DNA of 64,000 bases, from positions 4,066 to 68,065 of the forward strand of contig DASWNF010000010.1 of the NCBI GenBank assembly GCA_036399335.1. Reading direction: 5' to 3'. The translations under genes and the position numbers were made by a program. Shown here in pieces: positions 4,216 through 6,962 of this stretch. The stretch is from Minisyncoccota bacterium (GTDB taxonomy: Bacteria > Patescibacteriota > Minisyncoccia > Phycocordibacterales > Phycocordibacteraceae). Under the pieces are notes generated by a model, which saw nothing but the letters and a program-made list of their open reading frames with translations, searched no databases and was not told the origin of the DNA. Within the stretch, counting starts at the first letter, position 1. The number at the start of each line of letters is the position of its first letter.

Positions 4216-4216
4216 A

Positions 4217-4600
4217 CAATGAGCTGATTCTGGACTTTCGTTCACGGAGAGAAGCGTATGAGCGTCGAGGAGATTAAACCGGGATTCCAACCCCCGGCAT
4301 GTACTGGGGATTTCAAGCACGAAACTGCTGTCCGCAAAGGAGAGCGCCTTAAAAAAGCGGGTTTCGGCGACTGCGTTGACCCCAAAGAGGGTACGGCATG
4401 TCCTTGCGCGGGCGGCGCAGACCCGCAGAGAATGCCGAAAGTCAAAGGGGAGCTCGCCCTCAACTGCAGCAGACTAAGAAAGGCAGTTACGCCCATCCAG
4501 GCGGCTGCATGTCGTGCACGCATGCGCTCTACCTAATCTCCGATCACCGCCAAAGCTTAGGCTGAGGCGGTGTTTCGATTTATATATAAAGCCGGCGGAG
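4217..4600 (+). ncRNA. Candidate structured ncRNA with a tmRNA-like 5' end (possible ssrA); alternatively a Cys-rich 92-aa ORF at 4258-4536
   Basis: The sequence GAGCTGATTCTGGAC at 4221-4235 closely matches the conserved tmRNA 5' acceptor/D-loop region (GGGGCUGAUUCUGGAUUCGAC in E. coli). A 530-nt gene-poor gap follows rnhB. I could not find the 3' acceptor partner or a canonical tag reading frame. The ORF in this region has a GGAGAGAAG SD but lower GC3 than neighbouring genes. Confidence 0.3.
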
Positions 4601-4633
4601 CTTTCGCGTCCGCCGGCCATATGACCCGTGAGG

Positions 4634-4660
4634 GTGGGGGACTAGGGTCCCCGGGTTTTT
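4634..4660 (+). terminator. Rho-independent terminator-like hairpin
   Basis: GGGGGAC-TAGG-GTCCCC stem followed by GGGTTTTT. Confidence 0.45.
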
Positions 4661-4746
4661 CGGTAGCGCCGTAGCGTCTAGCCGGTTTCTAATAACCGAA
4701 GCACCCACTCTCGCCTTTTATAAGGCCCTGTGGTAGGGTATTTCCC

Positions 4747-5112
4747 ATGTCAGTACGAATGCGCCACACCAGTTCCCATACCAAGAACCGCCGGAGCCAC
4801 CACGCGCTCAAGGACGCTTCTATCGTGACGGATAAGGATTCCGGCGCGCTCCGTCTCCCGCACCGCCTCGACGAGACGACGGGCATGTACCGGGGCAAGC
4901 AGGTCATCCCGACCGAAACCTTGAAGCGCCGCGAAGCGCGCAAGGAGCGCCTCGATAAGCGCGCGCAGGAGGATGTCCATACGGACTTCCGTAACGAGCC
5001 CGCACAGGCCGAGGTCCACAACGAGAAGGAAGAGAAGAAGTCGGGTGTCCTCGGACGCTTCACGAAGGGCGGAAAGGCCAAGGCCCGTTCGGGCTTCGGC
5101 GGCGGGGCGTAA
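4747..5112 (+). CDS. rpmF: 50S ribosomal protein L32 with a long basic C-terminal extension
   Basis: N-terminus MSVRMRHTSSHTKNRRSHHALK...YRGKQV matches the L32 signature; the 121-aa length against ~57 aa typical implies a K/R/E-rich tail. Confidence 0.7.
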   Translation: MSVRMRHTSSHTKNRRSHHALKDASIVTDKDSGALRLPHRLDETTGMYRGKQVIPTETLKRREARKERLDKRAQEDVHTDFRNEPAQAEVHNEKEEKKSGVLGRFTKGGKAKARSGFGGGA

Positions 5113-5227
5113 CTCCACAACGCCACGCACAAAAGGGCGGCCTCATGGCCGCCCTTTTGTGTTGTACACACCCGGCGCCAGTTGCGCATTTGCGGGCGGT
5201 TGCTACTCTATCGGAACAGCTCTTTCC

Positions 5228-6136
5228 ATGGCAAACCGCCACCTCGCCCGTTCCGTCGTACTACAGACACTCTTCGAGTGGGATACTACGCATGCCTCCG
5301 ATGCTGCAGTCACGGAGATCCTCACCCGCAACGTCGATGAGTTCGGCGGGGAGGATGCGGACCGGCCGTTCATGGAAACCCTCCTTACCGGCGTTATCGC
5401 CAAGCGCCCTGACCTCGACCTCGTCATCACGAAGGCCGCACCCGATTGGCCGCTCGAGCGCATTGCGCCCGTCGACCGCAATATCCTCCGCATAGGGCTT
5501 TTCGAGCTTTTGTTCGCCGACCGCACGCAAGTCCCGGCGAAAGTCGCCATTAACGAGGCCATCGAACTCGCCAAGATATTCGGCGGCGATTCGTCCGGAC
5601 GTTTCGTGAACGGCGTCCTCGGCGCCGTGTACAAGGAAATGGGTGAACCCGGCAAGGACGAGAAGGGGAAGAAGGACCGCGTGCGCCGCGAAGACCTGCC
5701 GCTCGAGAAGCTCGGCGGCGCTATCGCCTACGCCGAGCACGAAGGCCAGTACTACCTCGCCCTCGTCCATGACGTCTTCGGGCGCTGGACGCTTTCGAAG
5801 GGGCACATCGAGCAGGACCCGAGCCCGGAGGAGGGGGTCGCCCGCGTCGTAAAGGAAGAGCTCGGCCTTATCGCTACCGTCGAGGAGATGGTGGGCGAGA
5901 ACGAGTACGTCGCCTCGCACCCCGAGAAGGGCAAGGTCAGGAAGCACGTCTGGTTCTTTCTCGTGCGCGCCGACTTCGAAACCCTCGTACTCAAGAAAAG
6001 CGGCGGCCTCGATGACGCGAAGTGGTTCCGCCTCCCGGATATCCTCGACCTCAATTTCTATGACGACATGCTCCCTATAGTCACGGCCGCAGTCCAGAAG
6101 CTTCTCGACAAGGCGCGCGCGAAGTCGAAGGCGTAG
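5228..6136 (+). CDS. nusB: Transcription antitermination factor NusB fused to a C-terminal NUDIX hydrolase domain
   Basis: VPAKVAINEAIELAKIFGGDSSGRFVNGVLGAV is near-identical to the NusB core (E. coli VPYKVAINEAIELAKSFG...FVNGVL). The C-terminal half carries the Nudix box GHIEQDPSPEEGVARVVKEELGL. ATG at 5228. Confidence 0.75.
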   Translation: MANRHLARSVVLQTLFEWDTTHASDAAVTEILTRNVDEFGGEDADRPFMETLLTGVIAKRPDLDLVITKAAPDWPLERIAPVDRNILRIGLFELLFADRTQVPAKVAINEAIELAKIFGGDSSGRFVNGVLGAVYKEMGEPGKDEKGKKDRVRREDLPLEKLGGAIAYAEHEGQYYLALVHDVFGRWTLSKGHIEQDPSPEEGVARVVKEELGLIATVEEMVGENEYVASHPEKGKVRKHVWFFLVRADFETLVLKKSGGLDDAKWFRLPDILDLNFYDDMLPIVTAAVQKLLDKARAKSKA

Positions 6137-6153: not shown

Positions 6154-6241
6154 CGCAACAACGGCATGTAGCGCCTCTCGGCAGCGCTCCGGGCCGCTAG
6201 GCCAAGTCTAACTGCCTCGAAACGCTACATGCCATCGTTGC
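6154..6241 (+). promoter_or_regulatory. Long imperfect inverted repeat (about 19-nt arms plus inner pairing) in the rnc leader; candidate RNase III autoregulatory stem-loop
   Basis: GCAACAACGGCATGTAGCG (6154-6172) pairs with CGCTACATGCCATCGTTGC (6223-6241); additional inner complementarity (tcggcag/ctgcc); lies 45 nt upstream of the rnc ATG. Confidence 0.5.
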
Positions 6242-6284
6242 TTCACACCTTGCTCTATCTGGTACCTAAAGGTATATACGGACT

Positions 6285-6962
6285 ATGACCATCGCCGAAC
6301 GGGCCGCCGCCCTCAATCTTTCTTTCAATAACCTGGAGCTTCTCGAAGAGGCGCTGACGCACCGTTCCTTCCTGAACGAGAACAAGGACGCCAGAGCGCA
6401 TAACGAACGGCTCGAATTCCTCGGGGATGCCGTGCTGGAGCTCGCCGTCACCCGGTTCCTCTTCGATAAGTTCCCGAACAAGCCCGAAGGCGACCTCACG
6501 GCCTTCCGCGCCGCGCTTGTGAATACCGTTTCGCTCGCCGAAAGTGCCGAGCTCATCGGGCTTAACGACCTACTCTTCCTTTCGCGCGGGGAAGCAAAGG
6601 ACACGGGACGCGCACGCCAAATAATCCTCGCAAATGCCTTTGAGGCCCTCATCGGCGCCGTATACCTTGACCAGGGGTATGACGCAGCCGAAGCCTTCAT
6701 CGGTAAGCACCTCTACGCGAAAATTGACGGCGTTATCCGTGAGCGCTCATGGCAGGACGCGAAGAGCCGCTTCCAGGAACTGGCCCAAGAGCGCCGGAGC
6801 GTCACGCCTCTCTACCGCACGCTTAAGGAAGAAGGCCCCGACCACGACAAGCGCTTCACCGTCGGCGTGTTCCTCATCGAGGAGGAAATCGCGCGCGGCG
6901 AGGGCCAGTCAAAGCAGGAGGCCGAGCAGGCTGCAGCGCGCGCTGCGCTCGAGATATTTTAG
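6285..6962 (+). CDS. rnc: Ribonuclease III
   Basis: HRSF...NERLEFLGDAVLELAV RNase III signature and a C-terminal dsRBD. Confidence 0.9.
   Translation: MTIAERAAALNLSFNNLELLEEALTHRSFLNENKDARAHNERLEFLGDAVLELAVTRFLFDKFPNKPEGDLTAFRAALVNTVSLAESAELIGLNDLLFLSRGEAKDTGRARQIILANAFEALIGAVYLDQGYDAAEAFIGKHLYAKIDGVIRERSWQDAKSRFQELAQERRSVTPLYRTLKEEGPDHDKRFTVGVFLIEEEIARGEGQSKQEAEQAAARAALEIF

Follow-up and report, generated by a model that had tools for sequence, protein, structure and literature searches.

The 64,000-nt stretch of contig DASWNF010000010.1 analysed here (assembly GCA_036399335.1, positions 4,066 to 68,065 of the forward strand; hereafter the window) belongs to a member of the Minisyncoccota and contains a gene, designated nusB::nudix (5228-6136), which encodes the transcription antitermination factor NusB and a Nudix-fold domain in a single frame of 302 codons followed by a TAG stop (6134-6136). 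The gene and its parts, its neighbours rpmF and rnc, the BoxA-like heptamer and the hairpin at 5135-5164 all lie on the forward strand. The open reading frame (ORF) begins with ATG at 5228 and has no internal stop in the translated window. A longer ORF from 4973 is mechanical only; the start was assigned to 5228 because the N-terminus M-A-N-R-H-L is kept in about 80 related genomes. An identical protein (P0001) is present in public databases, where it carries only the name 'transcription antitermination factor NusB [Candidatus Paceibacterota bacterium]'.

An earlier note on this DNA had proposed, from the letters alone, that NusB is followed in the same frame by a Nudix hydrolase domain, and had suggested a domain search as a check. 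Both families are matched above their curated Pfam cut-offs, namely NusB (PF01029) at residues 7-136 (E = 4.4e-34, 118.2 bits versus a cut-off of 23.1) and NUDIX (PF00293) at residues 184-281 (E = 9.7e-12, 45.5 bits versus 21.1), and the peptides quoted in the note are present in the 302-residue ORF, so this part of the proposal is borne out. The AlphaFold2 model, for which 50 diverse homologues served as input, has a mean predicted local distance difference test score (pLDDT) of 93 and a predicted template modelling score (pTM) of 0.77. It comprises a helical domain (residues 3-137), a short disordered stretch (148-150), which is the sole part with pLDDT below 50, and an alpha/beta/alpha domain (159-301). 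The two domains are joined by a linker (5642-5701) that opens with G139-E-P-G-K143, conserved at 95% or more in 81 genomes, and continues with the variable, Lys/Glu-rich residues 144-158.

The fusion is widespread among related organisms. Both Pfam domains are found in all 120 best database matches, which are 83-100% identical to the window protein and come from many independent samples. A HMMER scan of 1.84 billion representatives clustered at 50% identity returned 140 proteins at E ≤ 1e-30, and among the best 150 listed are several dozen clusters of full-length fusions (about 280-360 residues), with identities down to about 30%. At the species level, a locus search with a 15-sequence alignment provided a set of the best 80 loci, one genome per GTDB species, all of which cover residues 1 to about 295 without a change of frame, except for two cut off by contig ends (L040 and L082). 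Names given to these genomes include Kaiserbacteria, Nomurabacteria, Zambryskibacteria, Paceibacteria, Parcubacteria and Minisyncoccia, and many of the best 80 loci are labelled 'uncultured Candidatus Saccharibacteria', these labels being taken as deposited. All of the 120 best matches and of the 80 loci belong to Patescibacteria/Paceibacterota, and the NusB-Nudix fusion is the standard NusB of a large clade of these uncultivated, very small bacteria. Neither a second nusB nor another Nudix gene of the NusB-fused family was found in the 64-kb window. Literature searches on NusB, Nudix and Patescibacteria or the candidate phyla radiation returned no paper on the fusion, and a comprehensive review of the Nudix clan contains no mention of NusB (PMC5389931). 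The fusion is real, conserved and essentially undescribed, and within its own lineage the 'unusual link' of the earlier note is the common arrangement.

The nearest NusB-only proteins, which are 52-55% identical in the NusB domain, are encoded in rpmF-nusB-rnc clusters, with rnc directly next and no Nudix gene nearby. Since these relatives have the same cluster without a Nudix domain, the latter was added, in one lineage of Patescibacteria (Paceibacterota), to the C-terminus of NusB inside an existing rpmF-nusB-rnc cluster. A stand-alone Nudix gene, representing a split nusB and nudix pair, was also considered, and both Nudix-only representatives that were looked up proved unconvincing. One of them (P0258) is an incomplete fusion, cut off where its 1.8-kb contig begins. 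The other (P0243; L002, 254-682), a Nudix protein of 142 residues on a contig of 695 nt, looks chimeric, having a MutT-like N-terminal half with a canonical box and a C-terminal half of the NusB-fused type; an assembly error or recombination of a free-standing relative could explain it. In a separate case, the homologue P0238 from a genome with 25% GC (GCA_054047225.1; L083, 4001-4900) has two in-frame TGA codons at the positions of W187 and W266. Because these positions are occupied by family-invariant Trp, UGA is probably read as Trp in this genome of Patescibacteria.

The NusB domain (5228-5638, residues 1-137) is supported by PF01029, by the NCBIfam nusB equivalog model TIGR01951 (128.9 bits versus a cut-off of 88.35) and by solved structures. 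Alignments with solved NusB proteins cover the domain over its whole length, among them the NusB chains of NusB-NusE-BoxA structures and of the rrn and lambda-N antitermination complexes 6tqn, 6tqo and 5ms0. In the model this half consists of seven helices in an all-alpha fold with pLDDT above 90, and Foldseek gives template modelling (TM) scores of 0.85-0.89 to 1tzv, 3r2c and 3r2d. The motif VAINEAIELAK...FVNGVL is conserved, as had been noticed earlier, but the identity to solved NusB proteins is only 27-36%, so 'near-identical to canonical NusB' overstates the likeness. Canonical NusB (TIGR01951/PF01029), the BoxA-binding partner of NusE/S10, shares the equivalog assignment and the helical fold of the N-terminal 137 residues and ends after the last helix at about 140 residues, whereas the window protein continues through the GEPGK linker into a Nudix domain of 145 residues. 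Models of RsmB match residues 7-150 only and stay well under their cut-offs (59 bits versus 319), NF011494 among them with E = 3e-16, and Pfam and NCBIfam scans detected no S-adenosylmethionine-dependent 5-methylcytosine (m5C) methyltransferase domain in the protein. RsmB/Sun is comparable in that an RNA-binding domain of the NusB type brings a second, enzyme-fold domain to rRNA; however, it combines a NusB-like domain with a 16S rRNA m5C methyltransferase, while the window protein combines a true NusB, by the equivalog model, with a Nudix fold. By these sequence measures the gene is the genuine NusB of the organism, the predicted BoxA-RNA- and S10-binding subunit of the rRNA antitermination complex.

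The Nudix-fold domain (5702-6133, residues 159-302) resembles the hydrolases of diadenosine tetraphosphate and hexaphosphate (Ap4A/Ap6A). Its pLDDT exceeds 90, and Foldseek finds TM scores of 0.81-0.85 to Ap4A/Ap6A hydrolases, with the Aquifex Ap4A hydrolase (3i7u) and the Thermus Ap6A hydrolase Ndx1 (1vc8) as top matches (TM 0.85). The nearest solved proteins were sought with three queries, namely the single sequence, a 73-sequence profile and the structure model. The family profile matches 3i7u (1e-9), Chlamydia CT771 (4ilq, 4e-9) and 1vc8 (2e-8), then 9cxx, 1kt9 and 3u53. Further nearest solved proteins are the diadenosine polyphosphatase Rv2985 of M. tuberculosis and the Ap4A hydrolases of C. 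elegans and human, and lower-ranked matches include the Nudix domains of Dcp2 and NrtR as well as BdRppH. None of the NCBIfam Nudix models reaches its cut-off on the protein. As in the Ap4A/Ap6A hydrolases (3i7u, which is Aquifex aq_158, 1vc8, CT771, NUDT2 and their RppH-like relatives), the motif W-x-x-x-K-G-H precedes the box, and 13 residues beyond the box stands the invariant Y227, opposite which the alignment places a Tyr in the Aquifex enzyme. These hydrolases are free-standing and contain the Glu residues of the box, whereas the window domain is fused to NusB and has P198 and V207 instead. In fold and profile it is closest to the Ap4A/Ap6A hydrolases of the NUDT2/RppH-like group, and derivation from such an enzyme is the best explanation of its origin.

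The Nudix box (5801-5869, G192 to L214) is degenerate, contrary to the earlier description of a complete one. The consensus is GX5EX7REUXEEXGU, while the window protein reads G192-HIEQD-P198-SPEEGVA-R206-V207-V208-K-E210-E211-L-G213-L214. The first signature Glu is replaced by Pro (P198, 5819-5821) and the Glu of the 'RE' pair by Val (V207, 5846-5848), whereas R206, E210, E211 and G213 are kept. The register was set by HMMER alignment to Thermus Ndx1 and Chlamydia CT771, both of which have Glu at the positions of 198 and 207. Among 121 close relatives, position 198 is P, A, S, R or K and position 207 is V or I, and neither is ever Glu; G192, R206 and E211 are present in all 121, K191, H193 and D197 are invariant, and position 210 is E or D. 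Absence of the catalytic Glu residues from the second half, which the earlier note had named as evidence that would count against it, is thus found for two of the four. The residues W187, T188, K191, Y227 (Y243 in a more diverse set), W266 and Y278 are 90-100% conserved, as are H181, D182, F184, G185, G260-L261-D262 and the linker residues G139-EPG-K143. The invariance of K191 extends to the 73-sequence Nudix alignment, whereas that of H193 is limited to the 121 close relatives.

The state of the box varies across the family. It is fully canonical in seven of 50 diverse cluster representatives, ten of which have the RE-Glu, and the strict G-E-R-E-E-E-G pattern is found in 27 of 81 species-level sequences, with the RE-Glu in 40. 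At least 16 changes of the RE-Glu state are required on a neighbour-joining tree, an approximate figure because the tree was built from the same protein. The most divergent members lose even E210/E211 (e.g. ...NNKFAP and ...KEKYNL). In comparisons with the closest relatives, the ratio of nonsynonymous to synonymous substitution rates (dN/dS) is about 0.07-0.12 for the NusB and Nudix halves alike, a rough estimate with dS near saturation; against two other relatives it is 0.2-0.3 for the Nudix half. The identity in close relatives is 88% for the Nudix half and 86% for the NusB half. Judged by this conservation, the Nudix domain is clearly functional, yet selection does not consistently protect the catalytic Glu residues. 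A subgroup of nine loci (L006, L007, L008, L009, L018, L021, L024, L066 and L079) has a 5-residue insertion in the box loop (KGKIGDxPxxxxETxEEGTxRExKEE), which alters the G-x5-E spacing while the downstream REUXEE is kept.

The window represents a typical core region of a small genome, with 60% GC, and contains dnaE, rnhB, rpmF, nusB::nudix, rnc, a hypothetical gene, smc, a gene for an RNase R-type (RNB-domain) exoribonuclease, rpoB, rpoC, dnaG, rpoD and others. The upstream neighbour of nusB::nudix is rpmF (4747-5112, PF01783), encoding ribosomal protein L32, and the downstream neighbour is rnc (6285-6962; PF14622, PF00636 and PF00035), encoding RNase III. The gene order rnhB-rpmF-nusB::nudix-rnc-smc is conserved, L32 being found upstream in 77 of the 80 species-level loci and RNase III downstream in 77 of 80; the exceptions include loci that are truncated where a contig ends (L007, L014, L040, L070 and L082). 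The nusB::nudix-rnc pairing is kept in members only 30-37% identical, whose genomes have 25-42% GC, and in distant members (e.g. L083 and L086) the stop of nusB::nudix overlaps the start of rnc by 4-14 nt. The L32 of the window comprises 121 residues, about twice the usual length; the L32 domain occupies residues 6-54, and the C-terminal remainder is a long extension rich in Lys, Glu and Arg.

Several elements were noted in the intergenic regions. A BoxA-core-like heptamer, GCTCTTT (5219-5225), is located 2 nt before the start codon of nusB::nudix. Of 79 related loci, 18 have the pattern G[CT]TCTTT in the 40 nt that precede the start, versus 0.8 expected and versus four of 319 control ORF starts. 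Such cores lie just upstream of the nusB::nudix starts in L063, L028, L057 and others, and some related copies are near a full BoxA, e.g. GCTCTTTAATCAA in L063. The BoxA consensus GYTCTTTAANA is gamma-proteobacterial, and the window copy fits the 7-nt core only; autoregulation of Nus factors via BoxA near start codons has been documented in gamma-proteobacteria (PMC5725501). The assignment is tentative, and a role of the heptamer as a NusB/NusE (S10) autoregulatory site of its own gene is possible, a lead and not a finding.

A GC-rich hairpin read in the sequence, GGGCGGCC-TCAT-GGCCGCCC followed by TTTTGTGTTG (5135-5164), lies with its T-run between rpmF and nusB::nudix, 20 nt past the stop of the former and 64 nt before the start of the latter. 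It resembles a terminator or attenuator, and the two genes on either side are otherwise always adjacent. The hairpin is absent from the list of the consensus scan, and Rfam gave nothing at gathering thresholds in the window, with only sub-threshold matches to terminator-bearing small RNAs at about 5094-5229. The 148-nt spacer between nusB::nudix and rnc contains a long imperfect hairpin (6155-6245) with a stem of about 25 bp, a minimum free energy of -64 kcal/mol and a z-score of -3.9; a different long hairpin is present in L009 and none in L003, L004 and L010. The hairpin at 6155-6245 may be a substrate through which RNase III regulates its own gene, or else an inserted palindrome. The 530-nt gap between rnhB and rpmF (4216-4746) contains no convincing ORF and no Rfam match, and is poorly conserved in relatives save for the last 40 nt or so (about 4705-4742, TTTTATAAGGCCCTGTGGTAGGGTAT), a block resembling a promoter of the extended -10 type (TGnTAGGGT) that would serve rpmF-nusB::nudix.

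The earlier note had assigned the Nudix domain a possible role in RNA decapping, alarmone hydrolysis or NAD-cap removal. This proposal rested on a complete box, which is absent here, and an active hydrolase is unsupported for the window gene and is not the best reading of it; hydrolysis is plausible for the approximately one third of family members with a canonical box. We favour, at about even chances, a Nudix module that is a poor or dead hydrolase and still binds a nucleotide-polyphosphate ligand, operating as a crippled add-on of NusB in rRNA transcription and processing, because V207 and P198 replace Glu while R206, E210, E211, K191, H193, W187, Y227, W266 and Y278 are kept. Candidate ligands would be the 5'-triphosphate or the dinucleoside tetraphosphate (Np4N)-capped end of the nascent leader RNA, or free nucleotides of the Ap4A/ATP type.

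Other Nudix proteins provide precedents for such a loss. Going by the register of the box, the Glu that follows the Arg, at the position of V207, is presumably E58 of NUDT2. Human NUDT2 dephosphorylates 5'-triphosphorylated RNA (PPP-RNA) like RppH does, and its E58A mutant is inactive on this substrate (PMC8616924). NUDT9 with a RILGEE box and human TRPM2 (RILRQE) are inactive, invertebrate TRPM2 with a canonical box is active, and the RE-to-RI change in the Nudix domain of sea-anemone TRPM2 (nvTRPM2) leaves a kcat of about 1% with KM within twofold (PMC6461439). By analogy, these precedents for substitution of the RE-Glu would predict an at least 100-fold loss of activity. The RNA 3'-processing factor CF Im25, which is without two of the four box Glu residues, binds Ap4A (Kd 2.4 uM) and ATP with no hydrolysis, and in Ap4A hydrolases, as a rule, Lys/His residues that precede the box are phosphate ligands and a Tyr or Phe that follows it stacks on the base (PMC2425470).

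The NUDT9/TRPM2 and CF Im25 precedents fit the retained fold and cleft residues, the lost metal-binding Glu, and the occurrence of enzyme and non-enzyme lineages in one fused family. CF Im25 (NUDT21) resembles the window domain as a Nudix fold minus two of the four box Glu residues in an RNA-processing factor; however, it is without the second and fourth of them and the window protein without the first and second, and ligand binding by the window domain is only predicted. In TRPM2, too, the Nudix domain (NUDT9-H in vertebrates) is fused to another protein, acting as an enzyme in certain lineages and solely as a ligand sensor in others, and regulators of the NrtR type are comparable in that the fold search ranks their Nudix domain among its top matches. 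All three represent other Nudix subfamilies with other partners.

In the rRNA leader, NusB and S10 bind BoxA and nucleate the antitermination complex, which also retains the leader close to the RNA exit and thereby allows formation of the RNase III site (PMC6614801). In the mechanism considered here, NusB would tether a Nudix reader beside BoxA on the pre-rRNA, where RNase III, the product of the gene directly downstream, later cuts, and the module on the C-terminus of NusB would be placed near the 5' part of the nascent transcript. Relatives with a canonical box could remove a 5' triphosphate or Np4N cap, the family toggling between 'eraser' and 'reader', while in the clade of the window the module would only bind such a ligand or a free nucleotide, or would be a structural element of the complex. 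That NusB of Paceibacterota carries a built-in reader/eraser of this kind, removing the triphosphate or Np4N cap in canonical-box lineages and only clamping it here, is unlikely. If true, a single polypeptide would link antitermination to the state of the 5' end and to RNase III processing, as a bacterial analogue of Dcp2 that works co-transcriptionally and has switched repeatedly between enzyme and sensor in evolution. Dcp2 has an alpha-helical N-terminal domain, a hinge and a Nudix domain, and Foldseek aligns 250-263 columns in Dcp1-Dcp2 complexes; however, the root-mean-square deviation is 10-16 A, so that the likeness is topological only, the helical domains are unrelated, and the window protein is a member of neither the Dcp2 nor the RsmB family.

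Some observations weigh against a non-enzymatic module. The invariance of E210/E211, R206 and K191-G192-H193 within the clade is just as compatible with residual or altered catalysis, the invariant D197 beside P198 might replace the missing first Glu, and some Nudix enzymes with a non-canonical box, such as GDP-mannose mannosyl hydrolase, are active. The protein would then be an active hydrolase despite its box, that is, a 5'-pyrophosphohydrolase of the RppH/NUDT2 type that NusB tethers to the rRNA leader, an enzyme removing Np4N or NAD caps, or an Ap4A hydrolase; conversion of the 5' end to a monophosphate would license degradation or maturation of the leader. Besides the residues just listed, this is consistent with the enzymatic nature of the closest solved relatives (Ap4A/Ap6A hydrolases, diadenosine polyphosphatase, Dcp2 and BdRppH), with the PPP-RNA activity of NUDT2-type enzymes (PMC8616924), with the fully canonical box in about one third of species and with the linkage to the RNase III gene. 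However, V207 takes the place of a Mg-binding Glu whose equivalent mutants in NUDT2, NUDT9 and nvTRPM2 are inactive or reduced about 100-fold or more, and the pattern at position 207, never Glu in the 121 close relatives and Glu in only ten of the 50 diverse representatives, is unlike that of an essential catalytic residue. An active enzyme in the window's clade is somewhat improbable.

The Nudix fold may instead serve as a pure protein-protein or RNA scaffold of the antitermination complex without binding a small ligand. Such a role would resemble that of SuhB, an enzyme-fold protein which in E. coli is structural and stabilises NusB/E on RNA polymerase. Non-enzymatic Nudix proteins are a recognised class (PMC5389931), the most divergent members of the family have lost E210/E211, and the pTM of the model suggests a defined packing of the two domains. 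On the other hand, R206, E210, E211, K191 and H193, which are putative phosphate- or metal-binding residues that a pure scaffold would not need, are invariant in the clade. The scaffold reading is unlikely. An artefactual fusion, produced by a missed stop, a frameshift or a chimeric assembly of nusB with a neighbouring Nudix gene, has next to no probability, since beyond a few 'Nudix-only' or 'NusB-only' database entries, with those examined at a contig start (P0258) or on a very short contig (P0243), nothing was found in its favour, and the frame is continuous in the window, in 120 of 120 matches from independent assemblies and in 80 of 80 species genomes, with a conserved GEPGK linker and a dN/dS of about 0.1 over both halves.

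The preferred reading, a NusB with a catalytically impaired but ligand-binding Nudix module, concerns a core, near-universal transcription factor whose accessory domains are essentially undescribed save for the NusB-like domain of RsmB. Under the annotation 'transcription antitermination factor NusB', the second domain goes unnoticed. The repeated retention or loss of the catalytic Glu under strong selection represents a natural experiment, which offers matched pairs of enzymes and non-enzymes. The Patescibacteria form a huge lineage whose genomes are very small, and the fusion points to how their machinery of rRNA transcription and processing has been rebuilt; it may make up for the lack of SuhB, RppH or similar factors.

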